This document shows positions 12,848-56,295 of a stretch of DNA of 58,233 nt, in pieces; position 1 is the first letter of the stretch; the number at the start of each line of letters is the position of its first letter. The stretch lies in contig CAYJWP010000004.1 of the NCBI GenBank assembly GCA_964373915.1, positions 1 to 58,233 on the forward strand, written 5' to 3'. Source of the DNA: an uncultured Candidatus Saccharibacteria bacterium. GTDB lineage: Bacteria > Patescibacteriota > Minisyncoccia > UBA6257 > UBA11618. Position numbers and translations under genes: made by a program. The notes below the pieces were generated by a model that was given only the letters and a program-made list of their open reading frames with translations, was not told where the DNA came from and did no database searches.

Positions 12848-12848
12848 G

Positions 12849-15049: not shown

Positions 15050-15052
15050 CTT

Positions 15053-18087: not shown

Positions 18088-18115
18088 ATATTAATGGTAA
18101 CTCTATTACAAAACA

Positions 18116-20180: not shown

Positions 20181-20817
20181 TTTTAGCTCTAACAACGAAA
20201 GAAAGGGCAAATAAAGCAGGCCACCACTTAGCAAGTAATTTAAATAATTTGCCCGCAACAAAAATATTTTCTTTATAAGAATTAATTCTAACGTCAACTG
20301 ATGCCAAACCGTTTTCTTTTAGCATCTTGTTTAAAATATTATGGTTAAACCAATAAATATGGCCTTTTTTAGGAATATTGTTTTCCGGCGCTCTACCCAG
20401 TAGCATCTGAAGCCGAGCTGAAAGTGAATTAAAATTAGGAACACTAATCACAACATACTCTTTGGAAATTCTAACCATTTCTTTTAATAGATTTTCTGGA
20501 AAATAAAGATGCTCCAGAACGTCAAGAGCAACTACATATTGAAAAGTTTTATTCCTAAAAGGCAAAGGAGTTTTAGTCAGATCGTAAAGTTTTATTTCAA
20601 TGCCTTTAGTCCGGCATTTTTCTGCCGCCGCTTCGGAAAAATCAACGCCGACGCCAATAATTCCCTTTTCTTCAAGTTTTTCTAAAAGAAAACCATCGCC
20701 ACAACCCAAATCCAGCACCTCTCCGCTATCAATTAACTCCAGAGCTTTCCGATGCATAAAATTAAGCCCCTGATTTTTCTTCTCCCATCTTTTATTTTCA
20801 AATTTAACGTTTTCCAT
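20170..20817 (-). CDS. Class I SAM-dependent methyltransferase
   Basis: Contains VLDLGCGDGFLL, GVDFS and FQYVVALDVLEHLYFP. Confidence 0.8.
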   Translation of the reverse strand: MENVKFENKRWEKKNQGLNFMHRKALELIDSGEVLDLGCGDGFLLEKLEEKGIIGVGVDFSEAAAEKCRTKGIEIKLYDLTKTPLPFRNKTFQYVVALDVLEHLYFPENLLKEMVRISKEYVVISVPNFNSLSARLQMLLGRAPENNIPKKGHIYWFNHNILNKMLKENGLASVDVRINSYKENIFVAGKLFKLLAKWWPALFALSFVVRAKIIS

Positions 20818-20819
20818 AA

Positions 20820-21527
20820 TTATTTTTTCCAGTAGTTAAATTTTTGTTTGCCTATTTTAACTATTCCCTTGAATTGGCCAAAATCAACTCCAGCGTCAAT
20901 GGAATTGCGAGGAATTAAAAAAGTATCGGTTATAGAATTGACTGCTCCGGGCTTATTGCCATAGCCAAATTTATAATATTTCTTAGTTATCAATTTTACA
21001 CGTTCATCACAATCTCCATGAGGATAAGCCACTGAATCAACCTCTGCGCCTAATATATTCTCCAGCAACTCTTTAGAAGTCTTTAGTTCATTTTCTATCT
21101 CCTCCTCATTAAGTTGAGACAACCGACGATGATGATGGCCATGCGAACCGAATTTAACTAAACCGCTAGCAAGCATCTCTTTAATTTCTTGTTCGGATAA
21201 CATCTCCATTTCTAAACCCTCTTTTGTGGTCACGCTCTTTCCGATGTTAGCTGTATTAATAAAAATAATAGCCGGCACATTAAACTTTTTTAAAATAGGA
21301 TAGGCATTTCGGTAGTTATCTCTAAAGCCATCATCAAAAGTCACAGTAATATTTTTTAATCCTCCCCAACTTATATATTCTATCTGCTTTGCAAATTCCG
21401 CCGGCTTAACGGTAGAAAATTTATCATTCTCCCCCACCGAGTGGTACATTAAAACAACCCTTTTCTCCGAGGTAAAAATGAGCGCTATTTTATAAAACAG
21501 ATTTTTTAAAAAGTTCTTCATAATCAT
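20820..21527 (-). CDS. Polysaccharide deacetylase (NodB homology domain)
   Basis: TFDDGFRDNY, PAIIFINT and GSHGHHH are the NodB motifs. Confidence 0.75.
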   Translation of the reverse strand: MIMKNFLKNLFYKIALIFTSEKRVVLMYHSVGENDKFSTVKPAEFAKQIEYISWGGLKNITVTFDDGFRDNYRNAYPILKKFNVPAIIFINTANIGKSVTTKEGLEMEMLSEQEIKEMLASGLVKFGSHGHHHRRLSQLNEEEIENELKTSKELLENILGAEVDSVAYPHGDCDERVKLITKKYYKFGYGNKPGAVNSITDTFLIPRNSIDAGVDFGQFKGIVKIGKQKFNYWKK

Positions 21528-24342
21528 TTAAATATTTTTCTTCTGAAAAAAAACTTTCGGCAAACTTTTGCCCATTGCCCGCCAGCTTTTGGATAAGCTC
21601 ATCATCGGTCATAATCCGCTTTAAAATTGAGGCCAAACCAATTTTGTCTCCAGCCGCAAAAAGCAGTCCCGTCTCTCCGTCCTTAATCATATCTGGTATA
21701 CCCCCCACTCGACTGCCAATAACTGCCAAACCAGCCGCCATCGCTTCCAGAATAACCCTGCCTAATGCCTCGGAGTAAGAAGGCAAGACCAAGATAGCGC
21801 ATTCGGACATTTTTTCAGCCAGTTCTTTTTGAGAAATTTTACCCAAAAACAAAACCCTCTCTCGGTCCTTTAACTTACCTGCGTAATCTTTATCCTTCTC
21901 CTCACCAACAATAAAAAGATTAACATCTGGAAATTCAGAAGAAATTTTATCAAAAGCGTCTATTAAAATATCAACGCCTTTAAGGGGAATAATATCTCCG
22001 GCAAAAATAATATTCTTCTCGCCACTCCTTCTTTGAGCCGCCGCCTTAAAAACACTAATGTCAGTCCATGCGGGAAATTTAACAACTGTTTTACCAACGC
22101 TCCATTTTATTAATTGATCAACGGTGGCCTTAGAAACACCCCGCAAGATATCGGCTTTACTCAAAGCAAAATGCGCCATTTTTTTCATAATCCAGAAGTA
22201 AACCCTCTCTCCTAAAATTTTCTTTCGCAGAAAAACAGCTCTTTCAAAATCTCCATGGCTTTCTATAATTAATTTAATTTTTTTACCAAAAAAACTGGCA
22301 AAAATTTTTGCCCAAGCGCCGGTAAATCCTTCGTAAGAGTCTTCGGCAACAATAATCTTCGCGCCTTTTGTAAAAATAAGCCAAAGAGACAATTTCAAAC
22401 CGAAGAAAAACATTAATAATCGGCGCATAAATGCAAAGGGCAGACGAGGAGCAAGATAAAAAACAGCGTGATTTTCGAATCTTTCAAATTTTCCCCGCGT
22501 TGAATAACCTATAACAAAAATTCTTCCTAATTTTGACAAAAGAGAAAACTTTTTAGCGGAAGTCTCATCTAAAGGACAACTATATTTTGTTTTTCCTAAA
22601 AAAATAATAGCTCGCTTGGATAAAAACTTGCGCTGATAATAAAAATCCAGCCAACCGCTTAACCTTAATCTCCACCAAAGATTAGAGTGTTTAATATTAA
22701 GGCTGTCCCGATGTAAATAAAATCTATTAGCGCCCCTATTTAAGAACCCCGGCACGATAGTAAACGCCCCATTAAAATTATTTTCTTTCAAAACAGAAAC
22801 GGCTTTTTCTGAAGTATTAGATAGTTGGCCAAAAGGATAGGCGAACCAGATGATTTTTTTGCCAGTCCACTCCTCTAAAGTTTTTTTATCACTTGTTATT
22901 TCCTCCTTAGAACAATCCCTACCCAAATCCATATGGTGGACTGTATGTCCGCCGATATCAAAGAGCGAATCGCCGGCTAAATCTTTTAACTGGTCTACGG
23001 TCAAAGGAAACAGTCTTCTATTTCTTTTTAAAAATCGCTTTCTAAAATCAGCCGCCGCTCCCCCATGTAAACCGATAAATCCAGAGCAAACAAAAAATGT
23101 CGCTGGTATTTTCAACTCCCGAAGGGCTGACGCAACAATTTCATGCCAAGAAGCGTATCCATCGTCAAGTGTAATAGCAATTTTACTCTTGTTATTCTGG
23201 TCTTGTTTAAGAATCTTCTCCAAAGAAACGATTTCGTATCTTTTTTGTAGCCATTCCATTTTCTCCCTAAATTTTTTTCCATCATTAATATCATGAAAAG
23301 CAATAACTCTATTTTTCGGCCAATTTATTTCGCTGATAATTTTAAAAATAAGCGATTTTATGGAATGCCCTTCTTTTACAATCAGACTCAAATCCCCCGG
23401 CTTATCAAAAAGCAAAGCCTTATCCAATTTTTCCATCTGATCTTCAATATCCTCCCCCTTAATTATAAATTTTTCCTTTATGGCTTCTGGTAAAATCTCC
23501 TCTACGCAATTGTTCGGAGTAAGCACCGGCAAACCACACGCTAACGCTTCTACCACCGCCTTATCCAAAGCGCCATCATTAAAACTGACAAAAACCCTGT
23601 GGCTATTTAGAATTTGCGGCAGTTCATCATGCTTTGTCCGCCCGTGCCATTGCACCAAATCCTCAACCCCAAGGATTTGAGACAAATTTTTAAGGCTATC
23701 GGCGTATGCCTTATCTTTTTCCAGTACCGGGCCATAAATATGCAACTTAAGCGGAGTTTGATATTTGCGATTATAACTGGCTAAAAGTTTAATCGCCTTT
23801 TCCAGTCGCTTCACCGGAGAAATTCTGCCCACTGTCACTAAGTCCCCCGCCTTATCAAGACCTAATGGTCTGAATTCTTCCGTATCAACTCCCTGTCCAA
23901 CAATACGCACTTTGCGCGATTTTAAAGGAAAAGCATTTTTAGTAGAGGCAAATATAAGATTATCGCAAAAGTAGGCATAAAAACGCATCATTGGACCGAT
24001 GCGCGGATGCGATTTCCATTGATAAACCGGCTTCCTCCAAAATAGTTTAAAAGGCAAAAGCAATAATGGATAAGGCCCGCCCATATAAATAAAAAAATAG
24101 TCGGTCTCTTTGATGTGCTTTAATATTTCTCTGTAAAAATTAATAAATTTCGCTAACTTTCCTCCTCTTACGTGGCGGACTCCAACCTTTTCTGAAAAAT
24201 TAAAATCGCCTCTCCTTAGAGTCAGAACGGTTAATTTTTCTATGGCGGAATTTTTGCTAAATTCTTCTATCCAACTGACAGTCGTTGCCAGTATTGGATC
24301 ATTGATATCAACCGCTTCGCAGATAAAAATTACCTTGGCCAT
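21490..24342 (-). CDS. Tri-domain fusion: GT4 glycosyltransferase - NodB polysaccharide deacetylase - GT4 glycosyltransferase (950 aa)
   Basis: The N-terminal GT-B half ends with ALDKAVVEALACGLPVL. The middle has ITLDDGYASWHEIV, PATFFVCSG and GGHTVHHMDL. The C-terminus has IIFAGDIIPLKGVD, LVLPSYSEALGRVILEAMAAGLAVIGSRVGGIPDMIKDGETGLLF. Confidence 0.8.
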   Translation of the reverse strand: MAKVIFICEAVDINDPILATTVSWIEEFSKNSAIEKLTVLTLRRGDFNFSEKVGVRHVRGGKLAKFINFYREILKHIKETDYFFIYMGGPYPLLLLPFKLFWRKPVYQWKSHPRIGPMMRFYAYFCDNLIFASTKNAFPLKSRKVRIVGQGVDTEEFRPLGLDKAGDLVTVGRISPVKRLEKAIKLLASYNRKYQTPLKLHIYGPVLEKDKAYADSLKNLSQILGVEDLVQWHGRTKHDELPQILNSHRVFVSFNDGALDKAVVEALACGLPVLTPNNCVEEILPEAIKEKFIIKGEDIEDQMEKLDKALLFDKPGDLSLIVKEGHSIKSLIFKIISEINWPKNRVIAFHDINDGKKFREKMEWLQKRYEIVSLEKILKQDQNNKSKIAITLDDGYASWHEIVASALRELKIPATFFVCSGFIGLHGGAAADFRKRFLKRNRRLFPLTVDQLKDLAGDSLFDIGGHTVHHMDLGRDCSKEEITSDKKTLEEWTGKKIIWFAYPFGQLSNTSEKAVSVLKENNFNGAFTIVPGFLNRGANRFYLHRDSLNIKHSNLWWRLRLSGWLDFYYQRKFLSKRAIIFLGKTKYSCPLDETSAKKFSLLSKLGRIFVIGYSTRGKFERFENHAVFYLAPRLPFAFMRRLLMFFFGLKLSLWLIFTKGAKIIVAEDSYEGFTGAWAKIFASFFGKKIKLIIESHGDFERAVFLRKKILGERVYFWIMKKMAHFALSKADILRGVSKATVDQLIKWSVGKTVVKFPAWTDISVFKAAAQRRSGEKNIIFAGDIIPLKGVDILIDAFDKISSEFPDVNLFIVGEEKDKDYAGKLKDRERVLFLGKISQKELAEKMSECAILVLPSYSEALGRVILEAMAAGLAVIGSRVGGIPDMIKDGETGLLFAAGDKIGLASILKRIMTDDELIQKLAGNGQKFAESFFSEEKYLNDYEELFKKSVL

Positions 24343-25187
24343 TGTTTTATTTTATATCCCAATAAAAATTCTAATTCCTCAACTTCGCCTTTCAACATTT
24401 CCCAAACAATCTTTTCTTCCTCCTCGCTTAAAATCGGCTCCCGGTCGCCCCCTTTTTCAGTATTTACCTTTTTTAAAATTATGGTTGGCAGTCCACTTTT
24501 CTTAATCATCCACCACAAGCCCTGCAAACCGTTGTTCCTTAAAAAATCAGAAACATTAATAAATAATCTATCCAACCAAATAAATTTTGGTATTCTGCCT
24601 TCGTTAACTTTTTTATTAAGATAAACCGGCCGGAAATTAGCAGGTACTCCGATAAATTCATAAACTCTCCTAATAAATGACCCAGGATCTGTTAACCCGT
24701 CTTCGTAAATAAGAATTAGAATCTGGTCTTTGGGGAAAAAATTGAGATAACGTCTCAAATTTGTCGCATAGCTGCTCCTGTTTATATAATCAGGATTAAT
24801 TTTTAGGGCCTCTAAGAAAAAAGTTTCTTTGGGAATTATCCCCGACTTAATATCATTAATGAATTGGGAAAAAGTCCTCTTAACCGGATTCCTTAAAGAA
24901 ACAATTAATTTAATCTTCGGATATCTGTTAAAAATTCTCTCCGGCGTTTCTGGATGAGAAAAATAAGAGGTACTGCTTTCTCCTATGACTTTTTTCCCGC
25001 TGTATTTAGAAAATAATGATTCATACCAATCGTAGCCTCTGGCCCAGTTTTTCTCCCGGCTAAAAAAACTGGGCTCATCCATAGGAATGCCAACTTCCGG
25101 ATGCTCGTATAAGCAAGTCGTCATCCAACGCGTTCCTGATCTGCCGGCGCCTATACCAATAAAATCAGGGCTTCTTTTCATTGCCAC
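24330..25187 (-). CDS. Sulfotransferase-domain protein
   Basis: FIGIGAGRSGTRWM (5'-PSB) and VSLRNPVKRTFSQF (3'-PB, RNP-x-x-R). Confidence 0.75.
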   Translation of the reverse strand: MAMKRSPDFIGIGAGRSGTRWMTTCLYEHPEVGIPMDEPSFFSREKNWARGYDWYESLFSKYSGKKVIGESSTSYFSHPETPERIFNRYPKIKLIVSLRNPVKRTFSQFINDIKSGIIPKETFFLEALKINPDYINRSSYATNLRRYLNFFPKDQILILIYEDGLTDPGSFIRRVYEFIGVPANFRPVYLNKKVNEGRIPKFIWLDRLFINVSDFLRNNGLQGLWWMIKKSGLPTIILKKVNTEKGGDREPILSEEEEKIVWEMLKGEVEELEFLLGYKIKQWPR

Positions 25188-25245
25188 AAAATACCATTTT
25201 TAAATAGTTTTGACAATAGAAGGAAAACCATTATATTCTTCTTTT

Positions 25246-25887
25246 ATGCAATTTACCCGAAAAATATTAAACGGCTTATTCATCTGGTATGGAGGGCCAA
25301 AAAGATATCACAATATATATAAAATTATTAATGAGATAAAGCCAAAAAATATAATGGAGATAGGCACCTATAGGGGAGAAAGAGGATTGCGAATGATAAC
25401 CGAAGCTAAAAAATTTCACCCAGCAGAAGCAATTAATTATTATGGCTTTGACCTTTTTGAAGAAATGAAAGAAGAAACATTTGTTAAAGAAATTTCTAAA
25501 AATCCAATAACGGAAGAACAAACTAAAATAAAACTTGGTGAAACTGGCGCCAACATCGATCTCTTTAAGGGTTACACTTCATCAACCCTACCTCAGGCCT
25601 TTCCCCTCCTCCCTAAAATGGATTTTATTTTTATAGATGGCGGCCATAGCCTGGACACTGTCGCTAACGATTGGCAATGGTGTGAAAGGTTAATGCACGA
25701 TAACACGGTAGTCATTTTTGACGATTATTGGAACCGCGATGACGCCGGAGCAAAACCTATAATTGAAAATTTGGATAGAAATAAATACGAAGTAGCAATA
25801 TTGAATCCTCAAGATAAATTTAAAAAAGATTGGGGGGTGTTAGAAATAAATTTCGTTCGTGTCCAAAGAAAAAATACCGCGGCCTAG
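25246..25887 (+). CDS. Class I SAM-dependent methyltransferase (Methyltransf_24-like)
   Basis: Contains IMEIGTYRGERG, FIFIDGGHSLDTVANDW and VVIFDDY. ATG 25246 preferred over the track's TTG 25210. Confidence 0.65.
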   Translation: MQFTRKILNGLFIWYGGPKRYHNIYKIINEIKPKNIMEIGTYRGERGLRMITEAKKFHPAEAINYYGFDLFEEMKEETFVKEISKNPITEEQTKIKLGETGANIDLFKGYTSSTLPQAFPLLPKMDFIFIDGGHSLDTVANDWQWCERLMHDNTVVIFDDYWNRDDAGAKPIIENLDRNKYEVAILNPQDKFKKDWGVLEINFVRVQRKNTAA

Positions 25888-26468
25888 GCCAGCAACAACT
25901 CTCCCACCTCCGGCTCCGGAGAAACATTAGACTTCCACTTTAAGCATCTTTGATCACACAAACTCTCTTCGTCGCTCAAACCCAACACCCCGGCTTGGAG
26001 CATCCTTAACGGATTACCATGGCTGATGATTAAAATACTATGATTCTGGTGCTTACTATCTATGTCCCGCCAAGCCGCCAACATCCTTTCCTTTAAATCA
26101 TTTAGGTTTTCTCCTCCGGGAGGACGTTTAACAAATTTCTCCATGTCATTTTTAAAGAAACCATCCCGCTCTTTCCAAGTTCTGCCGTTAAAAATCCCGC
26201 AATCAAGCTGCCTCAAACGGTTATCGGCAAAAGCTGGAACGTTTAAATAAACGTTGACCAATCTGCAAGTTTCACAGACCCTTTTAAAAGGGGAATGGTA
26301 AATCATATGGATGTTTAATTTCACCAGCTCCTTCCCCAATCTCTCCGCTTGCTTTAAGCCCTCGGGAGTGATATTAGATTTTTCATCAGTTTCTCTGTCC
26401 GCCGATATCCAGCCACCGACATTATGGTCGGATTGGACATGACGCATAATAAGATAATTATTCCCCAT
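25884..26468 (-). CDS. Histidine phosphatase family protein (phosphoglycerate-mutase-like)
   Basis: LIMRHVQSDHN (RHG-type catalytic motif) and IISHGNPLR (second catalytic His). Start at MGNNY (26468). Confidence 0.75.
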   Translation of the reverse strand: MGNNYLIMRHVQSDHNVGGWISADRETDEKSNITPEGLKQAERLGKELVKLNIHMIYHSPFKRVCETCRLVNVYLNVPAFADNRLRQLDCGIFNGRTWKERDGFFKNDMEKFVKRPPGGENLNDLKERMLAAWRDIDSKHQNHSILIISHGNPLRMLQAGVLGLSDEESLCDQRCLKWKSNVSPEPEVGELLLA

Positions 26469-26484
26469 TTTAAAAGTCATTATA

Positions 26485-27537
26485 ATGAAAATTTTATTTA
26501 TTGTCACCCAGTCGGAATTAGGCGGCGCCCAGCGCTGGATTTTTGATACGGCTACTCATTTGGATAAAAATAAATATCAAATTGCCGTCGCCTCTGGCGG
26601 CAACGGCCCCTTGTCGGCAAATTTACAACAAAAAAATATTACCGTTTTCAGGCTCAAATATTTGGCCAGAAACATCAGTCCCTTCACCGACTTTTTTAGC
26701 TTGCTGGAAATTTACCGCCTTATTAAAAAAGAAAAACCTGGCATTTTACAGCTCTGCAGCACCAAAGCCGGTTTTCTCGGCTCCATCTCCGGCAAGCTAG
26801 CCCATGTACCAAAAATAGTCTATCGCATCGGCGGCTGGAGTTTTAATGATCCTCGCCCTCGTTGGCAAAATTTAATTTTTTTATGGCTAGAAAAATTAAC
26901 CGCGCCATTTAAAGATAAGATTATTGTCAATTCCCAATATGATTTTAATCAAGCGATTAAATTAAAAATATGTCCTAAAGAAAAATTAATTTTAATTTAT
27001 AATGGCATAAATTTGGAAGAGATAAGTAATGCTAGTGTTTTTTCTAACGATGAGACCCACCTTATAAAAATAGGCGCTATCGCTAACAACTATCCCGCTA
27101 AAGGGCTTAAATATTTATACAAAGCCATGGACTTGATAGAAAAAAATAATAAATTAGAACTTCTAGTTATTGGCAAAGGCACAAAAATTGGACCCAAAGA
27201 CGACCCTTGGCAATATTTCGCCGAACAGGGCGGTATTGGTATTTTTGTCATCCCTTCTCTTAAAGAAGGAGTCCCCTATGTTTTACTTGAAGCTATGGCC
27301 GCCGGCCTGCCGATTATTGCTACCAAAGTCGGAGGCATTCCGGAAATCATAGCCGATAGAAAAGAAGGGTTGCTCATTCCGCCTGCTAATTCTGAAAAGA
27401 TAGCCGAAGCAATAAAAACGCTTGCAGAAAATCAGGGCCTAAGAAAATCCCTAGCTCAAACCGCCAAAGAAACCGTTAAAAATTTTTCGCTGGAGAAAAT
27501 GATTGCCAAATATAGCCAATTAATACTTAATCTTTAG
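26485..27537 (+). CDS. GT4-family glycosyltransferase
   Basis: MKILFIVTQSELGGAQR and PSLKEGVPYVLLEAMAAGLPIIATKVGGIPEII (E-x7-E). Confidence 0.85.
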   Translation: MKILFIVTQSELGGAQRWIFDTATHLDKNKYQIAVASGGNGPLSANLQQKNITVFRLKYLARNISPFTDFFSLLEIYRLIKKEKPGILQLCSTKAGFLGSISGKLAHVPKIVYRIGGWSFNDPRPRWQNLIFLWLEKLTAPFKDKIIVNSQYDFNQAIKLKICPKEKLILIYNGINLEEISNASVFSNDETHLIKIGAIANNYPAKGLKYLYKAMDLIEKNNKLELLVIGKGTKIGPKDDPWQYFAEQGGIGIFVIPSLKEGVPYVLLEAMAAGLPIIATKVGGIPEIIADRKEGLLIPPANSEKIAEAIKTLAENQGLRKSLAQTAKETVKNFSLEKMIAKYSQLILNL

Positions 27538-29652
27538 AGCGATATCCAGTTCGCCCCATCGTTCTTTTTTTGTGAGTTCAATAATGATATCCATCTCTTT
27601 TACTAGATCTTCGCTTATATCTTTCATTCTGTCAGCGTTTTTAATAACCGCCTCCTTATTTCTCTGCCTAACATGATAAATAATATTACTGCTTAAAATA
27701 GTTATCATATTCTGATAGTCTGGTTCATTAAAATAAAGACGGCCCAATTCAAAAGCCTTGTTAATAGACGCTTCGCCTTCAATGCTGTGTCCTTGATTTG
27801 CTAAATATAAAATAGCGCCAAAAATATAGTGCGCTCTTCCGGAATTTGGACTAAGCTCTATTCCCTGTCTCGCTGTCGCCAAAGCCTGTTCCTTTTTTCC
27901 AGCAAGAACAAGAGAATAGGCATAAGTAAAATACAATTCCTGCCTTCTGGGCGACAGCTCTAGAGCCTTCTTCATAGCCACTTCAGCTTTAGTAAAATAA
28001 GACGCGTCAACCCGTCCTTTGTTGTTGTACATTTCCGCTAAACGAATAAATGAACGGGGACTGTAAGGTTCACGCCCCACATAATCTTCCATCGCCGCCA
28101 ACGCCTTATTAGTCAAAAGATTAAGCTCTTCTTTTGAGAAAGCGTCCGCCCTTACTAAAAGATCTACTAATTCGCCCCTGATGGTAGATTGGACGAAAGT
28201 ATAGGGCTCTAAAAAATTATCTAACTTTTCATACAAAATCTCTGTACTTCCCTGATGCCTCGTCACGTTAAAGGTTCTAGCTTGCCGATAAGGAAGGTAA
28301 TTATAGGCAAAAATAGAGTAAGCTATCGGAAGTATCATAAGCGTCATTAAAACTTGAAACCAAAAACTGGAAACAAATGAGCTGTTTTGAAACTGATTAT
28401 TTCTCTCAATAACTAATATAAAAACCAATCCCAAAGAAACGAAGAACATTAAATAACTGTTAACCTGATCAAAAACAAAAAGATTCTGAACAAAATAAGC
28501 AACGAACAAAAAACTTAGAATAGCGCTTAGTTTTTTGTCGCCGTTTTTTATTAAATAGAAAAATACCCAGCCGAATATTGTTAGATAAAGCGCTAACCCT
28601 AACAAGCCCTGCATTACTGCCACATCTAAAATCTTGTTATGGGCCCGATCAAACCATGAAGCTTCGTAGAGCAAATAGTCGGGATTGTAATATTTATTGT
28701 AGGCAATCTCCACATTCTCTAACCCCCATCCCAAAATCGGCTTTTCTTTTAAAGCTAATCCAGCTGTGCTTATTGATATCAATCTTGTCTGCACTGTCGG
28801 ATGTTTCCAAGAAACTCTGGCCACTCTATTCAATCCCGGAATCTTCTGCCACACAGAACTGCTTCTAGTCGCCCAAAAGCCAGCCATTGATAAAAAAATC
28901 AAAATTACTGCCAATAAAAGATATTTCTTGGTTAAAACAACTCGCCAATAATAAGCTCCGATAAAAACCAATCCTGCCAATAAACCTACCAAGGCTCCCC
29001 TAGTGCTTGATAAGAACAGCTCCACGAAAAAAAGAATGGCGGCTAATAAAGAGAAATACCTCCAAAAACTTCTTTTTTCTGAATTAATAAAAATTAATAT
29101 GGCTAAAGGCAGGAGAAATAAAAAATGAGTTCCCAGATAAGAAGAGTTGCCTAAGAAAGCATCGGGTCTTGGATTAACAGAGAAAGCAAAGGGAAATCTA
29201 TCCCAGCCAAAAAACTGAAGAAAGCTGTAGAAAACAATTATTGTTCCCGCAACCAGAGTGGTTTTTATATACAAAAACCACTCTCTTTTCTGAAAAACAA
29301 CCGCTGCCATTACAAAAAAAGCCAGATAATGTAGCCAGCCAAACAACCCCTCCATTCTTTCCGCCTCCCCCCAAAACGCCCGATAAACATTATCTGCCAA
29401 AAAAGTGCTTATAGCCGCTGAAACAAAAAACAACAAAACAAAAATAAACAACGGCTGTTTTATTAATGCCAGCATTCTATTTTTCAAATCAGCTCCTCTG
29501 ATAAGCTCAACTATAAATAAAATTAAACCCAACTCTACCAACGCCCTAAAGAAAAAAGCTTTTCCAGTAACAAAGGGAAAAATAAGCGACGGCGTATAAA
29601 TCAAGGGCGTAACAGCCGTTGCAAGAAGCAAAAACTTCAAAATTCTCTGCAT
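27520..29652 (-). CDS. Wzy_C (O-antigen ligase/O-oligosaccharyltransferase-like) polytopic membrane protein with C-terminal TPR domain
   Basis: 710 aa, about 12 TM. GWGLENVEIAYNKYYNPDYLLYEASWFDRAHN lies in a periplasmic-type loop. The C-terminal ~230 aa has TPR-like A/Y/G-spaced repeats. Confidence 0.75.
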   Translation of the reverse strand: MQRILKFLLLATAVTPLIYTPSLIFPFVTGKAFFFRALVELGLILFIVELIRGADLKNRMLALIKQPLFIFVLLFFVSAAISTFLADNVYRAFWGEAERMEGLFGWLHYLAFFVMAAVVFQKREWFLYIKTTLVAGTIIVFYSFLQFFGWDRFPFAFSVNPRPDAFLGNSSYLGTHFLFLLPLAILIFINSEKRSFWRYFSLLAAILFFVELFLSSTRGALVGLLAGLVFIGAYYWRVVLTKKYLLLAVILIFLSMAGFWATRSSSVWQKIPGLNRVARVSWKHPTVQTRLISISTAGLALKEKPILGWGLENVEIAYNKYYNPDYLLYEASWFDRAHNKILDVAVMQGLLGLALYLTIFGWVFFYLIKNGDKKLSAILSFLFVAYFVQNLFVFDQVNSYLMFFVSLGLVFILVIERNNQFQNSSFVSSFWFQVLMTLMILPIAYSIFAYNYLPYRQARTFNVTRHQGSTEILYEKLDNFLEPYTFVQSTIRGELVDLLVRADAFSKEELNLLTNKALAAMEDYVGREPYSPRSFIRLAEMYNNKGRVDASYFTKAEVAMKKALELSPRRQELYFTYAYSLVLAGKKEQALATARQGIELSPNSGRAHYIFGAILYLANQGHSIEGEASINKAFELGRLYFNEPDYQNMITILSSNIIYHVRQRNKEAVIKNADRMKDISEDLVKEMDIIIELTKKERWGELDIALKIKY

Positions 29653-29691
29653 AATATTCTTTGGATATATTAATCAAAACAACGATAAAAC

Positions 29692-29727
29692 AAAAGCCCC
29701 CGTCCGCCGACTGGCGGAGCGGGGGGC
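29692..29727 (-). terminator. Intrinsic terminator after the 1136-aa surface-protein gene
   Basis: Minus strand reads GCCCCCCGCTCCGCC-AGTC-GGCGGACGGGGGC followed by TTTTGTTTT. Confidence 0.75.
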
Positions 29728-29780
29728 TTTTGTTTCGTTTCAGTCGTTACAGATTTACAGATATTCAGCTTTCAAGACTA

Positions 29781-32700
29781 CTAACTGCTCTTGACCAAAG
29801 CTTTAGAGCCAGACGGTAAGGTCTTGACGTTAAAGCCGTTGTGCCAATCGGCAGAGGTAGCGCTGTGAGGAAGGACGCCGCGATCGCTCCAAACGAAGGA
29901 ATCGCCGTCATTCTCTTGAGCTACTCTACCAGCAGCAGCGTCATAGCCCGTCTCATCTCTCTTCAACTTGGTAACCAAGGAGGCGGAGGTGGAACCGACA
30001 GCAGAGACGTCAAGCAGTAAGGAGTAGGTCTTGGACTGACCGGCAGAAATTCTTTCTGGGGTTGTCAAAGCAATAACGCCTTCACCGCCTGTAGCCGCCA
30101 CAGTCTTTGTTGCTAAGCTCAAATCAGTACCGCTATATCTCAAAGTAATGGTGTTCGCCGTTAGGGTCGCACTGCTAAGAGAAGCGGTGAATTCGATTTG
30201 AGACCACTCAACGTCGCCGTTAGTGTCAGCTGCGATAGTAAACTTCAGAGCTTCAACTTCGCCAGCGGTCAAGACAGAGCTTGATGGGCTGGAAACAGTG
30301 ACGGTCGGAATAGTCTTGTACAATCTCTTGACGTTGGCCGCGCCAGCGCCGGTAAGAGTTGTTAATTGAGTAGTTCCGGCCACACCTTCAAAGTTGGCAG
30401 TAGAGATGTAGGCATTCAAGCTTGTGCCAGTGTTGGCACCGCCGGTAACGCCAGTTACATCAGCCATCAAAGCCCTAACTTCAAGTTGCTTGGTAGTATC
30501 GCCAGGAGCAGTAAAGAGGCCGTTGCGGTTTTCAAATTTCACCGCGCCGGCATCAGCGCCGCTACCAGCGGGCACGCCAGACATAAGCAGAGTGTTACCA
30601 TCATAAACTCGGATTTCTTTCACCTCTTCGTTCAACGCCGTGGTGGTCGTTGTGCCAGAGGTAGCAACACCAATCTTGATCTTAGTGACTTGCACCGCCG
30701 CATTAGCGGCAAAGAAGTCATACCTAGCCAGTAATCGCTCGCCATTGGCGGCAACTAAGCCAGCTTCAGTGTCTTGATCGGTAACCGCGTCAACCCGAAT
30801 AGTCGGAGCAGTGACAGTTACTTTAACAGCCGCTGTGTCGTTAACCGCACCAGTTAGAGACAGAGTGTTACCTTCAATATCTACCGCCGTTAAATCAGTG
30901 CTCAAATCAGCAAGACTAACGAAGTAGGCATTGGTAGCAGTGGCGTCTGTGGCTATAGAATCAGCCTTAACAACCACCTTCACAGTCGCGCCTTCCGGTA
31001 TGGTGTACTCAATATTGCTAAAGGTAGCAGTATTAAGACTGGAGGCGGTCGCGAAGTTTTGCTTGGTAGCTAACGATTGATCGCCGATAAAGATACCAAT
31101 GGTTCTCAAGTCATTAATCAACTGAGCATCAGTACCAGCATCACCGGCCGCAGAAGAAGCGGTAAGCTTCAAGCTGGTAATCTTAACCGGACCGTTAACA
31201 GCTTTCAAGTTAAAACCGAACAGAGATTCATTAAGCGTACCCTTGACCACATTGTGTGAGGCCGGAGTACCACTCAAAGTCACATCTAGACTGACAGCTT
31301 TAACCGTCTGGGTGTTACCAACAATGTCCGCGTTAGGAACGATATCGGCTTGAGCAACAAACTGATTGTTGTCCAAGTTCTTGATATCGCTGGCGCCAAT
31401 CTGGTTGAAAGTAACCTTAATGGAGTCGCTAGCATCGTTGTCAGGATCAACATCGGCCGTTACCAAGAACCTTCTTGATGTGCCGGCGGAAATGTTGATG
31501 AAGTCAGTGACAGAAGTATTACCATCAGCGGTAATATCGCTGGCACTGCTAACAGCCGCGCCGGTAGAAGCGTCAACAATCTTCCAATCGTTGAACCCCT
31601 CGCCAGTGCCAATGTTAGTGACATCATTGTTAAAGACCAGTTTCCTAATCTCAACATTGTTCTTAGCGGCAATAGTGAAGTCAAACAGAGTCACATCTTG
31701 AGCTTTAGCTGGGATGTCCCGAGTCGCTGGACCATTGAAAGTAACGGTCACCTCAGCGCCTCTTAATGTCAATACGTGGTGGTCGCTGGGGTCAGAGTCA
31801 AACGCAGTGCTTGTAACAGTCACTCCGTAACCATAAGTCGCGCCCGTCGCGTAGAAGTCATTAGTGACGTCCAAATAAAACTTGATAGTCTCATCTTTCT
31901 TCGCTAAAGGACCAATATCGCCGTAAACCTCAAAAGTCCTATTTTGTCCCTTTAAGATTTTAAACGGATTAGCCAACTCTAAGACATATAAGTCTCGGCC
32001 AACATGGCCTGCAACAGAGGCAACGGTTTGGCCAGCCTGCATCATTTTGACATTTGTTACGTTAGCAGAGTTGATGCTACCCGCCTGGGTAAGCACTACC
32101 CTCTTGACCCACAAATCTTCAGTTGCACCCGCAGTCACTTTAAACTCAGAAAGCTTAGCTCCCACCTGGCCAACCGTCGGGTTGGAAAGAGAGCTTTGTT
32201 TGGCAACAGTTACCGAGCCAACAGTAGCGCCGGCAATAACCATCTGGTTGCCCTTTAAGGGAACAGCCAACTCGTTGCCATTAACCTTTATCAAGTTAAA
32301 GGCGTTGATATTGCCGCCGGTAGCTGTAGCACTCATATCAGCCGCCAAGGTAAATGTCCTAGAACCATTAACAACTAGGTTAAGGTTAGTGAAATCTACC
32401 TCATGGGAGGTGGAGTTCAGGCTCTTGCCCGTGGTTAATCTGTTACTGCCCTCATAAACCTTTACACCGCTGCTAGCAAAGTCAGCCGTAGCTCCCAAAC
32501 CAACTCTCTTGAAGGTTAAGGAATTAAGCGTGCCATTGCCATAAACGGCAAATTTCATGTATGGGGCTTCAGCCGCGCCAATCGGGATATTAGAGCTCGG
32601 AACATTATCAGCCGCTAAAGCGAAAGATAATCCTGCCGCGCTAGGAATTACTGGAGATCCAGGAGCTGTCGGGACAGATACGGACGTAGCGGGAGCTCCC

Positions 32701-33191
32701 CCTAGCAAAGCGTTAACTTTTGCTCTTGTAGAAGCGCCAAAATAGCCAGTTCCTTTAGTCAAACCAACAGGCCCTAAAATATCAGACGCGTATTTGTCCT
32801 GAAACTTCGCAACAGCCGCTTTGGTCAAAGAACCAAAGTACTGCGATTCCTTTCCAGGAGAACCAGCGCCAGAAGAAGCGACTCTAGTGCTCGGATCAGC
32901 ATTCAAGAACATCTGCATGTACATAACGGCGGAACCAGTGCTACCAACAGTGAGGTTGTCGGTAAACTTGTATCCAGCCGGAATACCAGCAGTTGATCCA
33001 GAAGGAGCCGAAGTGCCTTGCAAAACGTCTAATTGAGAGGTCAACTGAGCGATTAACGCCTGAAGTTGAGAAATCTCGCTAGCGCTGCTTTGAGCTAAGG
33101 CAATAGGCATAAAAGCCGATGCTCCTGTGAGCCAAACAACAGTCGTTGTAGATAATGCAATCGAAGTAATCTTAGATATAGATTTACTCAT
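29781..33191 (-). CDS. Giant cell-surface (S-layer-like) protein with N-terminal peptidoglycan-binding domain and Thr/Ala/Ser/Val-rich beta-repeat body
   Basis: Signal peptide present. GSTGSAVMYMQMFLN...YFGSLTKAAVAKFQDKY...YFGASTRAKVNALL matches PG_binding_1. About 950 aa of low-complexity Ig-like beta segments follow. It has its own promoter and terminator. Confidence 0.8.
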   Translation of the reverse strand: MSKSISKITSIALSTTTVVWLTGASAFMPIALAQSSASEISQLQALIAQLTSQLDVLQGTSAPSGSTAGIPAGYKFTDNLTVGSTGSAVMYMQMFLNADPSTRVASSGAGSPGKESQYFGSLTKAAVAKFQDKYASDILGPVGLTKGTGYFGASTRAKVNALLGGAPATSVSVPTAPGSPVIPSAAGLSFALAADNVPSSNIPIGAAEAPYMKFAVYGNGTLNSLTFKRVGLGATADFASSGVKVYEGSNRLTTGKSLNSTSHEVDFTNLNLVVNGSRTFTLAADMSATATGGNINAFNLIKVNGNELAVPLKGNQMVIAGATVGSVTVAKQSSLSNPTVGQVGAKLSEFKVTAGATEDLWVKRVVLTQAGSINSANVTNVKMMQAGQTVASVAGHVGRDLYVLELANPFKILKGQNRTFEVYGDIGPLAKKDETIKFYLDVTNDFYATGATYGYGVTVTSTAFDSDPSDHHVLTLRGAEVTVTFNGPATRDIPAKAQDVTLFDFTIAAKNNVEIRKLVFNNDVTNIGTGEGFNDWKIVDASTGAAVSSASDITADGNTSVTDFINISAGTSRRFLVTADVDPDNDASDSIKVTFNQIGASDIKNLDNNQFVAQADIVPNADIVGNTQTVKAVSLDVTLSGTPASHNVVKGTLNESLFGFNLKAVNGPVKITSLKLTASSAAGDAGTDAQLINDLRTIGIFIGDQSLATKQNFATASSLNTATFSNIEYTIPEGATVKVVVKADSIATDATATNAYFVSLADLSTDLTAVDIEGNTLSLTGAVNDTAAVKVTVTAPTIRVDAVTDQDTEAGLVAANGERLLARYDFFAANAAVQVTKIKIGVATSGTTTTTALNEEVKEIRVYDGNTLLMSGVPAGSGADAGAVKFENRNGLFTAPGDTTKQLEVRALMADVTGVTGGANTGTSLNAYISTANFEGVAGTTQLTTLTGAGAANVKRLYKTIPTVTVSSPSSSVLTAGEVEALKFTIAADTNGDVEWSQIEFTASLSSATLTANTITLRYSGTDLSLATKTVAATGGEGVIALTTPERISAGQSKTYSLLLDVSAVGSTSASLVTKLKRDETGYDAAAGRVAQENDGDSFVWSDRGVLPHSATSADWHNGFNVKTLPSGSKALVKSS

Positions 33192-33360
33192 TTATAAATT
33201 ATTATTTTTTATACGACTTTGTAATTTTATAATTTGCCATATTACCTTAATTCTTCATCGACCTTGTTCAAATAAAGGTAATCGCTAATAACAAAAAATC
33301 CGACAGAGTCGGAGGCCAAACCAAAAAACATAGGCTCAGGCCTCACTCTGAACCATCTAT

Positions 33361-33381
33361 TCCGGATAATTGCTATCCGGA
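33361..33381. promoter_or_regulatory. Perfect 8-N5-8 palindrome at the predicted transcription start of the surface-protein gene (operator or 5' stem-loop)
   Basis: TCCGGATA-attgc-TATCCGGA, starting 2 nt downstream of the -10 element. Confidence 0.4.
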
Positions 33382-33382
33382 C

Positions 33383-33411
33383 ATACTATATTAATGTAGC
33401 TGGAATGTCAA
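33383..33411 (-). promoter_or_regulatory. Sigma70-type promoter of the surface-protein gene
   Basis: Minus strand reads TTGACA-N17-TAGTAT. This leaves a roughly 185-nt AT-rich 5' UTR without an SD. Confidence 0.5.
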
Positions 33412-33476
33412 TAAAGACAGCTAAACACAGAAAAATCTGGGGTTCTACTAAAGGAAACGAAAAAAGGCTTACTTTA

Positions 33477-34028
33477 TTACGATTTTACGAAGTAAGTAGT
33501 CCCCGGACCGCTGTCTCCTACTCTAGCAATTAAATTCTGATTGATAAGTTTCTGAAGATCATAGCGCAAAGTTCTTTCGCTGACCTCGGGAAAACTGGAT
33601 GTTAAATCCTTTAATTGACATCCTTCGCCATCTTTTTGCCGGATTTTTTCTATAATTGCCGATTGCCGGATTAGAGGTTTAACCCCGTTTTCATTATCAT
33701 TTTCATCACTTTCACTAAATATAGTTGATAAATCCGGCAATTTGTCTAAGCCATATGTTTGCCGGATTTCCGAATCGACTGTGGATAACTCCTTAATAAT
33801 TAAACCGGCGTTTATGGGCTCTATTTCAAAAATTAACTGGCTAAAATTTATAAAAGATTTAAGAACCTTAATAGTCTTCAGAGATTTTTCAAAATCTCCA
33901 AAAGAAACATCCTCCAACAACTCCAAAGACCACCTCTCCAGCTTAGACCTTAAATCAGATCTTCTAACATAAACAGCGGACCTCAAAATAGAATAAGCCA
34001 GCTCCCTTGCTTTGTGCTCCAGAAACAT
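33477..34028 (-). CDS. Putative transcriptional regulator: N-terminal helical bundle + C-terminal DeoR-type winged HTH
   Basis: The C-terminus CQLKDLTSSFPEVSERTLRYDLQKLINQNLIARVG resembles HTH_DeoR. The N-terminal ~90 aa is predicted all-helical. Confidence 0.6.
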   Translation of the reverse strand: MFLEHKARELAYSILRSAVYVRRSDLRSKLERWSLELLEDVSFGDFEKSLKTIKVLKSFINFSQLIFEIEPINAGLIIKELSTVDSEIRQTYGLDKLPDLSTIFSESDENDNENGVKPLIRQSAIIEKIRQKDGEGCQLKDLTSSFPEVSERTLRYDLQKLINQNLIARVGDSGPGTTYFVKS

Positions 34029-34068
34029 TTCCTACCAGTGTAAAAATGTTTTAGTATATTGTCAAAGT

Positions 34069-35907
34069 ATGGCTAGGTATTTTTATAGAATTTCACAAAT
34101 ATTTATTTATATTGCTCTCGTCAGCTTAATTCTCATCAACAAATCCCTTTTTTATCCTTTTATATCCGGTAAGATTATTTGGTTCCGAACAGCGGTGGAG
34201 ATATCATTGGCTTGTTTTTTAATATTTTTAATATTAAACAAAAATTATTGGCAGAAAATCAAAAGCCGGTTGTTCCATCCAGTAAGCTCGGCGGTGATAG
34301 TTTTCACTATTATCTTCCTTGCAACTTCTTTTTTGGGCATTAACCCCCAAAATAGTTTTTGGTCAAACTTTGAGAGAGGCGAGGGAGGGTTTCAAATTAT
34401 CCACTACGCTTTATTTTTTCTCTTAACTTGCGTTCTTTTCCAAACCAAATCCGACTGGCGCCGCCTCTTTTACTTCTTATTTTTCATCACTTTTCTAGTA
34501 ATGCTTTATGCCACAGGCCAAATCCTCTCTCTGGATTGGTTTATAGCAAAAAATCTGACCCCATCAGGAACTTTTGGCAATGCTTCCTATCTAGGAAGCT
34601 TTCTTTCCATCGCCTTCTTTTTTCTTTTTTGGACACTAATTGGCAACAAATCAAGAATAACTCAGATAATGTTGGGAGGATTGTTCCTGATGATGGTTTA
34701 CGTTTTTTATAAATCAGACACCTCGGCCGCCCTGGGCGCCTTGCTTATAGGGTCGACGGTTATCTTCTTTTCAACCTTTTGGCGTAAATCAAACTGGCAC
34801 AAGATAATTATCTTACTAGCAATTGTCGTTTTCTTAAACACTTCTTTCTTTTTAGTGTGGAAATCAAAAAATGGAGAAGTTGTCAATTCTCTCCAGCCTC
34901 GTTTGTGGACCTGGGGTTCAGCTCTGGCTGGCTTTATGGAAAAACCGATTTTGGGTTGGGGAGCGGAAAATTTTCCCTATGTTTTTGATAAATACTACAA
35001 TGCCAACCACTTCGGCAAAGAAACTTGGTTTGACAGAACGCACAACATTCTCCTTGAGTATTTGGTAGCTGGCGGAATAATATTACTCCTCTCCTATCTT
35101 CTGATATTCTTTTTTTACTTTAAATATCTTTTCAAAATAAAGGGGCGGGGATTGGAGTGGAATTTATTTCTGGTCGTTCCCTTGGTCTATTTAATTCAGG
35201 GCTTGACTCTTTTTGAAACTCTGCCTATTTATATATCTCTCTTCCTTTTTTTGGCTTTGTTTATAAATTATTCGCTGGAATTTCAAGGCAATCAGCCGGA
35301 ATTTAAAGACACTGCTTATAAAATAATCACGCCTGTGGCTTTATTAACGATTCTTCTTGCCTCATTATTTTTTACCAGCTACCTTCCTCTAAAAAAAAAT
35401 AAATTGACTATTAGCGCCTCTGATACCAGCGGTAAACCTCTGGAAGAAATATACTCTCAATTCTCCAAAGCGTTAGTTTTTTACTCTCCTGTCGGGCAGG
35501 AAGAGTTAAAGAACAGCCTCTTTTTTACAACCTACAATATCTTTAGCTTCATCCAAAAAGAAAAATCTCCTCTGGGTAATAACAAAGAATTTATCGGAAA
35601 TATCATCACCTTTAATCGGCAATGGTTTGAAAAAAACCGTTCTAATTACTTCGGCGTAAAAAATCTTTATGCCTTTACCTCTACTCTACTCAAAGCTTTT
35701 GAAATCACTGATGATAAAAAATACTTATCCGAAGCTAAGGAATTGGTTGAACGAGGAGTGAAGCTGGCTCCCAGCCGGCTGGAGTTTATTAAACAACAGA
35801 TGATTATTGCTCGGATAGAGAAAGATAATCAGGCGCTAAAAAACCTGGAGTTAAAACTAAACAAGCTAAGGCCTGATATTATTCACGTTGTTACAGAGTC
35901 CAACTAG
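34069..35907 (+). CDS. Second Wzy_C (O-antigen ligase-like) membrane protein, paralog of 27520..29652
   Basis: GWGAENFPYVFDKYYNANHFGKETWFDRTHN parallels the motif in the other protein. Polytopic, with a helical C-terminal domain. Start at ATG 34069 (MARYFYR). Confidence 0.75.
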   Translation: MARYFYRISQIFIYIALVSLILINKSLFYPFISGKIIWFRTAVEISLACFLIFLILNKNYWQKIKSRLFHPVSSAVIVFTIIFLATSFLGINPQNSFWSNFERGEGGFQIIHYALFFLLTCVLFQTKSDWRRLFYFLFFITFLVMLYATGQILSLDWFIAKNLTPSGTFGNASYLGSFLSIAFFFLFWTLIGNKSRITQIMLGGLFLMMVYVFYKSDTSAALGALLIGSTVIFFSTFWRKSNWHKIIILLAIVVFLNTSFFLVWKSKNGEVVNSLQPRLWTWGSALAGFMEKPILGWGAENFPYVFDKYYNANHFGKETWFDRTHNILLEYLVAGGIILLLSYLLIFFFYFKYLFKIKGRGLEWNLFLVVPLVYLIQGLTLFETLPIYISLFLFLALFINYSLEFQGNQPEFKDTAYKIITPVALLTILLASLFFTSYLPLKKNKLTISASDTSGKPLEEIYSQFSKALVFYSPVGQEELKNSLFFTTYNIFSFIQKEKSPLGNNKEFIGNIITFNRQWFEKNRSNYFGVKNLYAFTSTLLKAFEITDDKKYLSEAKELVERGVKLAPSRLEFIKQQMIIARIEKDNQALKNLELKLNKLRPDIIHVVTESN

Positions 35908-36583
35908 AAGTTAAAAAGATTATTGCCAGTAAAAATAGAAAAACGCCGATATCTTTGATTAACAGCCGGCGATTGATATTTTTTTGGTGGTAATTAGCTA
36001 ATAAATCCAGCAGTAAAAGTATTGATAAGATAACCAGATTAGAGGAGTTTAAAAAGCCTATCGGCAGCCAATTAACCACCCAAAGCAGTTGGCTAATAAT
36101 AAAAACAACAACCAAGATGAAAACTGGCGGCAAAACGGCCGTAAACAACTCCCTTACTAAAATAAATATTAATCCTGCGAACAAAAGCCAGCTAAGGAAA
36201 AACCACTGTGATTTATCCACTATAAAATAACTAATCAGCAAGAGATAAATCAAAGAAATTATCAGGATGGCGTGCCATTTTTTCCGATTTACCAATACCA
36301 TATTTTTCACTCCCAAGATTATAAAAAACAAAAAGGAAAAAAAGGCCGCCAAAAAAATCCGCAGAAGAAAAATATCAGCCCCCGCCATCCACAAAGCTAA
36401 AAATAAAAAAACCGCAAATGAATAAAAGAAAGTGAAAGCGTTTAGCAGAGGCCGAAAGTAAAGCCACAATGCCGCCACCAAAAAAGCCCAAGGCGACCAG
36501 AGTAAAGCAAGACCGGAAATAAAGACCTTAAACGCTAATTGAAATATCTGATTGTTTAAAACTAATTTTAGCCCTGCCGCCAT
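35891..36583 (-). CDS. Polytopic membrane protein, unknown function
   Basis: 230-aa ORF with 6-7 hydrophobic helices. The track start overlaps the clpB 3' end by 56 nt, so the true start is probably an internal TTG/GTG. Confidence 0.5.
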
Positions 36584-56097: not shown

Positions 56098-56168
56098 CGG
56101 GCCGTAGTGTAATGGCAGCACGAGTCTTTTGGGAAGATTTAGTCCGAGTTCAAGTCTCGGCGGCCCGA
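56098..56168 (+). tRNA. tRNA-Pro (anticodon TGG)
   Basis: Hand-folded cloverleaf. Acceptor CGGGCCG/CGGCCCG, D stem GTGT/GCAC, anticodon stem AGTCT/AGATT with loop TTTGGGA, T arm CCGAG-TTCAAGT-CTCGG. No encoded CCA. Confidence 0.9.
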
Positions 56169-56180
56169 CCCGAATTGAGA

Positions 56181-56252
56181 GCCCTCGTAGCTCAATGGAT
56201 AGAGTAGCGGTCTTCTAAGCCGTAGATGTAGGTTCGATTCCTACCGAGGGCG
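56181..56252 (+). tRNA. tRNA-Arg (anticodon TCT)
   Basis: Acceptor GCCCTCG/CGAGGGC, anticodon loop CTTCTAA, T arm GTAGG-TTCGATT-CCTAC. The anticodon stem has two G-U pairs. Confidence 0.85.
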
Positions 56253-56295
56253 CCCGAACCGCCGGCACCGACAGGGGTTGCAGGAGCTTAGTTGT

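Follow-up and report, generated by a model that had tools for sequence, protein, structure and literature searches.

The closest described counterparts of the locus examined here are the predicted surface-layer (S-layer) O-oligosaccharyltransferases (O-OTases) of the slg clusters of two Firmicutes, WsfB of Paenibacillus alvei and WsaA/WsaB of Geobacillus stearothermophilus. WsfB is composed of a Wzy_C domain and C-terminal tetratricopeptide repeats (TPR), whereas WsaB is devoid of TPR and is preceded by a 168-aa TPR protein, WsaA; in both cases the genes adjoin the S-layer gene and a glycan cluster whose priming enzyme is of the Bac_transf type (PMC2943079). The genes of substrate-specific O-OTases typically neighbor that of their target (PMC3643930, PMC12645811), and pglL homologs are located beside pilin genes in 21 of 31 cases (PMC3643930). 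A comparable locus is found in an uncultured, ultra-small Candidatus Saccharibacteria bacterium (assembly GCA_964373915.1, contig CAYJWP010000004.1), of which a stretch of 58,233 nucleotides, hereafter the window, was analyzed. Here the gene of an S-layer-type surface protein is accompanied by two paralogous Wzy_C genes, designated WzyA and WzyB, and by the gene of a putative regulator. These four genes constitute a conserved cell-surface module of Parcubacteria-type Patescibacteria, and we tentatively favor, while stopping short of calling it probable, the reading that WzyA glycosylates the surface protein and is thus the Patescibacterial counterpart of the Firmicute S-layer O-OTases. The features of the locus are the following.

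27520..29652, minus strand: WzyA, 710 aa, a WaaL-fold Wzy_C enzyme with a C-terminal, predicted extracytoplasmic TPR superhelix at about residues 470-705 (Pfam, AlphaFold2 (AF2), Foldseek)
29692..29727, minus strand: intrinsic terminator (hairpin and U-run) separating the surface-protein gene from WzyA
29781..33191, minus strand: S-layer-type surface protein, 1136 aa (translation, homologs, AF2, composition)
33192..33411, minus strand: promoter TTGACA-17-TAGTAT and a 5' leader of about 190 nt with hairpins
33477..34028, minus strand: putative DeoR-type regulator, 183 aa, with a C-terminal winged helix-turn-helix (HTH; HTH_DeoR, 24.4 bits against a cut-off of 21)
34069..35907, plus strand: WzyB, 612 aa, the Wzy_C paralog, with a TPR-like helical C-terminal domain
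35891..36583, minus strand: conserved 230-aa protein between ClpB and the module, without a Pfam match, in the same position in 10 loci
11495..27537, strand unassigned: glycan-assembly island (context), from Pfam matches of the encoded proteins

An open reading frame (ORF) check recovered, at these coordinates, all four genes that had been named in the sequence-only reading, an earlier account of this DNA. Public gene calls are shorter for two of them (window 29781-33191 and 34012-35907): the surface protein is given as 1109 aa, without its signal peptide, and WzyB as 405 aa, whereas the lengths favored by alignment with homologs are 1136 and 612 aa. The start of WzyB at 34069 is likewise favored over an upstream TTG, as homologs cover 98-99% of that length.

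The genomic context of the module was assessed in two surveys. The first was based on the surface protein and comprised an unbiased sample of 80 metagenome loci, in which WzyA was scored within 2.5 kb downstream; the second was based on the enzyme, relatives of which are encoded in at least 595 stretches of GTDB species genomes, and 80 of these loci were kept. Some enzyme-based loci duplicate those obtained via the surface protein, and L012 is the same contig as L004. In a smaller set of six PG_binding-type loci, with identities from 66% to 27%, a Wzy_C-TPR gene was in every case found directly downstream of the surface-protein gene. In the metagenome survey, WzyA was located downstream in 29 of the 32 loci with a surface-protein identity of at least 34% (about 25 of 27 after collapsing duplicates) and in two of the four loci at 30-33%. 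Viewed from the enzyme, 16 of the 18 loci carrying the closest Wzy_C-TPR homologs have the surface-protein gene as their immediate upstream neighbor in the same orientation, 87-600 bp away.

The usual order of the module in relatives is regulator, surface protein, WzyA and WzyB. A regulator homolog immediately precedes the surface-protein gene, in the same orientation, in 14 loci of an earlier collection and in many of a later one. WzyB usually follows WzyA on the same strand and frequently occurs as two ORFs, a core of about 450-490 aa and a TPR-like part of about 200 aa, and its divergent upstream position in the window was seen again only in L002/L090. The sequence-only reading had described the surface protein as bracketed by two Wzy_C enzymes; the succession of surface protein and Wzy_C-TPR enzyme proved largely conserved, but the bracketing is a local rearrangement of the usual order.

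The exceptions to this succession differ in kind. In L094/L095, which are duplicates, an IS200-type transposase gene follows the surface-protein gene, right where the Wzy_C-TPR gene is expected. In L017, a close WzyA homolog divergently faces an unrelated 1080-aa surface protein (4486-7728, minus strand), which combines beta-sandwich domains (CarboxypepD_reg and SdrD_B) with a peptidoglycan-binding SPOR domain at its C-terminus; hhalign gave a negative result for its membership in the surface-protein family, and it is a different protein. The L017 contig is labelled Hydrogenophilales, probably through a binning error. A distant group of Wzy_C-TPR enzymes, of about 740 aa, is generally not found beside the surface-protein family. 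Elsewhere the enzyme has multiplied: L023, L048 and L060 contain three or four Wzy_C-TPR paralogs in tandem, which in L023 and L060 stand directly behind a surface-protein-like gene. In L005, the pair of surface protein and Wzy_C-TPR enzyme is kept amid ribosomal genes, with no glycan genes nearby, which indicates that the linkage is independent of glycan genes.

The surface protein consists of a signal peptide, a coiled coil (residues 36-56), a PG_binding_1 domain, a Pro/Thr/Ser linker (165-185), about nine beta-sandwich domains reaching to residue 1076 and a C-terminal tail, as judged from the translation and the AF2 model. The PG_binding_1 domain ascribed to it at the outset remains below threshold in the window copy (20.4 bits against a cut-off of 23); it passes the threshold in most homologs, and the AF2 model displays the corresponding three-helix domain at about residues 70-163. 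The protein is Thr/Ser/Ala-rich, as had been described (A 12.9%, T 11.6%, S 9.4%), although the epithet "giant" overstates a length of 1136 aa. No Pfam family matches its body, a sequence search of PDB returned zero matches, and Foldseek with the model yielded only generic strings of Ig-like domains (macroglobulins, integrins), which are uninformative. The family is large, with 619 clusters at 50% identity (E <= 1e-30), and in its distant members SLH domains replace PG_binding_1. Such swapping of the wall anchor is characteristic of S-layer proteins. The protein is secreted, wall-anchored, acidic in net charge, entirely devoid of Cys, Thr/Ala-rich and encoded by a single gene with strong expression signals; on these sequence, composition and model features, it is likely an S-layer-type protein and the main coat protein of the cell surface.

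Two regions of the surface protein are candidate docking or acceptor sites. The disordered linker is Pro/Thr/Ser-rich in every aligned homolog, with poly-Thr runs at the extreme. The C-terminal tail, WSD..H[ST]..DWxNG..VKxLPS, is conserved and poorly structured; the alignment shows it to be retained down to 25% identity, and among the ORFs of the window and of loci L001-L087 the motif is exclusive to this family.

The surface-protein gene has, as first noted, a promoter and a strong terminator of its own. The promoter, TTGACA-17-TAGTAT at 33411..33383, is near-consensus, and the terminator hairpin at about 29727..29692 (-38.6 kcal/mol, z -6.6) is followed by UUUUGUUUU. All 17 relatives examined have an equivalent hairpin with a U-run that separates the surface-protein gene from WzyA. 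The leader (33192-33382, minus strand) opens with a perfect hairpin, GUCCGGAUA…UAUCCGGA, and contains two terminator-like hairpins with U-runs, at 33354-33333 and 33313-33299; Rfam gave no match in the 5' leader or elsewhere in the module. The leader may function as an operator bound by the adjacent HTH protein, in attenuation, or as a 5' structure that stabilises the mRNA. Judged by its promoter, leader and terminator, the surface-protein gene appears to be a transcription unit of its own and to be highly expressed.

WzyA and WzyB are paralogs, in agreement with the initial proposal: they align end to end with 27% identity (E 9e-37) and share the loop motif GWGxEN…KYYN…WFDRxHN, which takes the forms ILGWGLEN..YNKYYN..SWFDRAHN and ILGWGAEN..FDKYYN..TWFDRTHN in the two proteins and varies little or not at all within either family. 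The Wzy_C model (PF04932; cut-off 31.7 bits) matches WzyA with 62.9 bits at residues 203-357 and WzyB with 50.1 bits. Both paralogs had been credited with C-terminal TPR or helical domains. In WzyA, several TPR families of Pfam match residues 553-616; WzyB has no Pfam TPR match, and its C-terminal part gives a weak match to Rrp5 HAT/TPR repeats via the family profile (E 0.007), while the split-off homologs of this part give a weak match to TPR_19. The 120 top homologs of each paralog belong, where named, to Patescibacteria or unclassified bacteria. Named close homologs of the genes studied are all from Patescibacteria (Parcubacteria-type).

AF2 modeling of WzyA (pLDDT 91.6, pTM 0.88) revealed a polytopic core, an extra long helix at residues 430-467 and helical repeats extending to residue 705. 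The only solved relative of the membrane domain identified by Foldseek is WaaL (7TPG_B; E 8.9e-4, target TM-score 0.61 over 450 columns), and the tail is similar to consensus TPR proteins and to the TPR domain found in O-GlcNAc transferase. The WzyB family profile matches WaaL 7TPG with an E-value of 3.7e-11, with the TRGA, RLxxW and AHN motifs aligned. A direct sequence search of PDB returned TPR proteins only for full-length WzyA and nothing for its membrane part; by sequence, WaaL was reached with the family profile alone. All 30 WzyA homologs contain the residues R218, R290 and H338; the WzyB family retains R278 and R323 without exception, and H325 with at least 90% conservation. Those of WzyA correspond to the Arg/Arg/His triad common to WaaL and PglL, i.e., R215, R288 and H338 in E. 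coli WaaL and R224, R298 and H349 in PglL (PMC3643930). WzyA has 13 predicted transmembrane (TM) segments and K/R-rich cytoplasmic loops; from the positive-inside rule and the homology with WaaL, its catalytic loop (262-340) and its TPR domain are predicted to lie outside the membrane, the extra 13th TM helix placing the TPR domain of about 250 aa on that side.

The neighboring glycan island encodes, according to Pfam, one Bac_transf priming enzyme, two Polysacc_synt (Wzx-type) flippases, GT4 and GT9 glycosyltransferases, an HldE-like protein (PfkB and CTP_transf), His_Phos_1, two sulfotransferases, methyltransferases and Polysacc_deac_1 deacetylases. The two sulfotransferases are different from each other, and together with the GT9 heptosyltransferase-like enzyme and the HldE-like kinase/nucleotidyltransferase (window positions 14237-15049, 24330-25187 and 15796-19540) they suggest a sulfated, heptose-containing glycan. 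The island could supply an undecaprenyl-pyrophosphate-linked donor. That the two flippases signify two glycans or two classes of acceptor, as the sequence-only reading had it, is speculation.

Under the favored reading, the priming transferase and the glycosyltransferases of the island would build an oligosaccharide on undecaprenyl pyrophosphate, and a Wzx flippase would turn it outward. WzyA would then move the oligosaccharide en bloc onto Ser/Thr hydroxyls of the secreted surface protein, with the chemistry performed by the conserved Arg/Arg/His site in its external loop and with the TPR domain gripping the substrate, for which the linker and the C-terminal tail are the candidate docking or acceptor sites. 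WzyB would act as a second transferase or as a repeat-unit polymerase. The proposal of a dedicated O-glycosylation system finds support in the gene linkage, the predicted outward orientation of the TPR domain and the Firmicute precedent; these do not establish that the acceptor is a protein.

The likeness to WsfB and WsaA/WsaB is one of architecture as described. Both arrangements of the Firmicute systems recur here, TPR fused to the enzyme and free-standing TPR (the latter in L005 and the deep branch of the family), and a Wzy_C enzyme is again located beside an S-layer-type gene and a glycan cluster with a Bac_transf enzyme. The module differs from them in its occurrence in Patescibacteria, in an unrelated, PG_binding_1-anchored family of S-layer proteins and in the presence of two Wzy_C paralogs per module; furthermore, export here looks Wzx-type, whereas an ABC transporter is used in G. 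stearothermophilus. In P. alvei, the acceptor residue of the S-layer glycan is Tyr.

Further similarities connect the module with TfpO/PilO, TfpM and PglS, where a WaaL-related gene also adjoins that of the substrate, the neighboring surface protein being here the putative one. TfpO and TfpM lack PglL_A and Wzy_C_2 and modify the C-terminal residue of their substrate (PMC12645811); likewise, both domains are absent from the enzymes described here, and the candidate substrate has a conserved C-terminal tail containing Ser/Thr. Unlike the present enzymes, TfpO/PilO, TfpM and PglS have no TPR and target type IV pilins of proteobacteria. PglL of Neisseria and others shares the Wzy_C core and the Arg/Arg/His triad, and its preference for disordered Ser/Ala/Pro-rich segments would fit the linker (PMC3643930, PMC12645811); a C-terminal TPR motif has been reported for it as well (PMC2943079). 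It differs in possessing PglL_A/Wzy_C_2 and in being usually unlinked to a single substrate gene. WaaL, in turn, has 12 TM helices, no TPR and lipid A-core as acceptor, in contrast to the 13 TM helices and TPR of WzyA.

Patescibacteria are regarded as monoderm. Among enzymes of monoderms, WzyA and WzyB resemble, by description, the O-antigen-ligase-like TacL, for which neither TPR nor an association with an S-layer gene is known to us. TacL is the lipoteichoic-acid ligase of S. pneumoniae and transfers an undecaprenyl-pyrophosphate-linked polymer to a glycolipid acceptor (PMC5727136). No lipid A or lipopolysaccharide genes are evident within the window, and the sequence-only reading had deduced a protein acceptor from the lack of lipid A-core; this deduction is rejected, since the acceptor of TacL, itself a Wzy_C-type ligase, is a glycolipid (PMC5727136).

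Several observations weigh against glycosylation of the surface protein by WzyA. The linkage weakens with distance: at 20-29% surface-protein identity, WzyA was found downstream in only two of 16 loci, both times on the opposite strand, and Wzy_C linkage was seen in none of the four SLH-anchored relatives examined. Glycan genes often adjoin the enzyme in relatives, so that it could belong to the glycan pathway and not to the surface protein, and in L042, an exception among the 18 enzyme-based loci like L017, WzyA is flanked by a DegT aminotransferase and a Wzx flippase within a glycan cluster that has no surface-protein gene. ClpB, which is surely functionally unrelated, and the 230-aa protein are frequent upstream neighbors; with ClpB syntenic too, the conservation is in part no more than small genomes remaining collinear. 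The terminator between the two genes implies that they are not simply co-transcribed. As to the enzymes themselves, the WaaL fold was matched, but the markers of PglL/PglS-type enzymes, PglL_A (PF15864) and Wzy_C_2 (PF11846), have no match in either paralog at E <= 10, and the only solved relative, WaaL, uses a lipid acceptor. The TIGR04370 repeat-unit polymerase model matches WzyA alone, weakly and below threshold (25.3 bits against a cut-off of 40); no Pfam polymerase family, such as O-ag_pol_Wzy or EpsG, matches either paralog at E <= 10. Wzy polymerases belong to the Wzy_C superfamily too.

A rival explanation, which we consider unlikely but which deserves serious attention, is that the paralogs act on non-protein acceptors. 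One paralog would be the Wzy polymerase of the island glycan and the other would ligate the polymer to a glycolipid or the wall in the manner of TacL, the TPR would serve contacts within the machinery, and adjacency to the surface protein would result from clustering of envelope genes and collinearity. A Wzx-dependent pathway requires a polymerase if its glycan is polymeric, and the window contains no other candidate; the TIGR04370 match, the many loci with flanking glycan genes, the L042 arrangement and the synteny of ClpB agree with this explanation, the depositors of the lipid-acceptor ligase 7TPG term it a "polymerase/ligase", and TacL provides a precedent in a Gram-positive bacterium (PMC5727136). 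However, the pair persists with no adjacent glycan genes in L005, L013 and L059, and adjacency to the surface protein, at about 90% of loci, is tighter than that to any glycan gene. The His of the triad common to ligases and OTases is retained in both paralog families, the window encodes neither a Wzz nor an LCP-type partner, and the L017 enzyme is paired with a different wall-anchored surface protein. Moreover, the surface-protein gene is followed by a free-standing TPR module also in loci that lack a nearby Wzy_C gene.

This module was found in a deep branch of the surface-protein family (25-29% identity) in which Wzy_C is usually absent. In at least 13 loci of this branch, the gene directly after the surface protein encodes a small TPR protein of 210-280 aa, composed of an N-terminal TM (signal) anchor, a Ser/Thr-rich spacer and TPR (e.g., L128:9476-10174), with no Wzy_C gene within about 6 kb; L005 has both a small TPR protein of this kind (13506-14057) and a Wzy_C-TPR enzyme. 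A single-pass hidden Markov model of 14 small TPR proteins gave a colinear match to the TM13 and TPR portion (about 442-656) of Wzy_C-TPR enzymes, with E-values of 9e-9 to 1e-4. An iterated search reached residues 438-627 of WzyA in the window (E 4e-25), with TPR profile drift possible, and comparison of a small TPR protein with the WzyA profile by hhalign did not reach significance (E 0.05). These sequence comparisons are suggestive of a relationship between the small TPR proteins and the TM13 and TPR module of WzyA. If it is true, the constant companion of the surface protein is an outward-facing TPR module, fused to an enzyme or not.

Along the same line of thought, the TPR module may be the true partner, as a factor for S-layer assembly, export or anchoring, with the fused Wzy_C separate or accessory and the linkage having nothing to do with glycosylation; we regard this as improbable. 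The deep-branch TM-anchored proteins with no Wzy_C in reach, their resemblance to the enzyme module and the frequent splitting of WzyB into a catalytic core and a separate TPR-like ORF would be explained, but in a single pass the small TPR proteins resemble the enzyme tails only modestly, and searches with TPR repeats are prone to profile drift. The catalytic residues of the fused Wzy_C are strictly conserved, which indicates that the enzyme is under selection, and in the Firmicute parallel WsaA/WsaB the TPR proteins are tied to a transferase and not to assembly (PMC2943079). Finally, an absence of any functional link, with adjacency being merely the gene order inherited in one clade of reduced genomes, is very improbable: ClpB, the 230-aa protein and FtsK/RecA are recurrent neighbors as well and the linkage decays with divergence, but same-strand adjacency at about 100 bp is kept amid reshuffled surroundings (L005, L007 and L019), the enzyme is tandemly amplified behind surface-protein-like genes (L023 and L060), and the domain logic of a predicted extracytoplasmic TPR beside a secreted protein argues for a partnership.

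Returning to glycosylation of the surface protein by WzyA, a bolder version of it is one that we hold to be distinctly doubtful. WzyA and WzyB may represent an undescribed class of substrate-dedicated O-OTases of monoderm Patescibacteria, in which a membrane-anchored extracytoplasmic TPR module, fused or free, would read the tail WSD..H[ST]..DWxNG..LPS and present the protein to the WaaL-fold core, and each paralog would attach a glycan of its own or act at sites of its own. If true, this would be a modular "reader plus transferase" system, possibly reusable for glycoengineering.

Patescibacteria comprise a large share of bacterial diversity, are mostly uncultured and dependent on cell contact, and their envelopes are poorly understood. 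The surface-protein family is a widespread candidate for their main coat protein, and the enzyme module that may decorate it offers targets for metaproteomic glycopeptide searches and for reconstitution in laboratory E. coli. Should substrate selection indeed reside in the TPR, this would be a natural case of a modular domain for acceptor recognition attached to a WaaL-fold transferase and would bear on how O-OTases choose their proteins. The literature searched held no description of a Patescibacterial pairing of surface protein and Wzy_C-TPR enzyme, an absence that is no proof of novelty; should WzyA indeed glycosylate the surface protein, the locus would represent an S-layer O-glycosylation module in a phylum for which that literature describes none.

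Some further features of the surface-protein loci and the window may be mentioned. The distant SLH-anchored relatives (L006, L088, L089 and the P0090 contig) are 1400-1560 aa long and have no Wzy_C neighbor, and PIN-domain genes are interspersed around them. In most SLH-type loci, the genes a few kb downstream include an ABC-2 transporter pair and one for a fusion of GT2 and methyltransferase, about 1000-1100 aa in length; only a GT2 of about 1000 aa is within reach in L006, and L089 stops at the transporter. These neighborhoods are reminiscent of ABC-transporter-dependent S-layer glycan pathways. Lamin Tail Domain proteins of about 1000-1150 aa, which may be further surface proteins, are encoded near the surface-protein locus in the window (5516-8515, minus strand), in L094 (11991-15239) and in L154 (6237-9695). 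The gene of the 230-aa protein (35891-36583, minus strand) overlaps the 3' end of clpB and is located between ClpB and the module in 10 related loci. Towards the end of the window, a cluster of four tRNAs is present at 56098-56549 (plus strand), and a fifth tRNA at 58168-58233 (plus strand) is cut by the window end.

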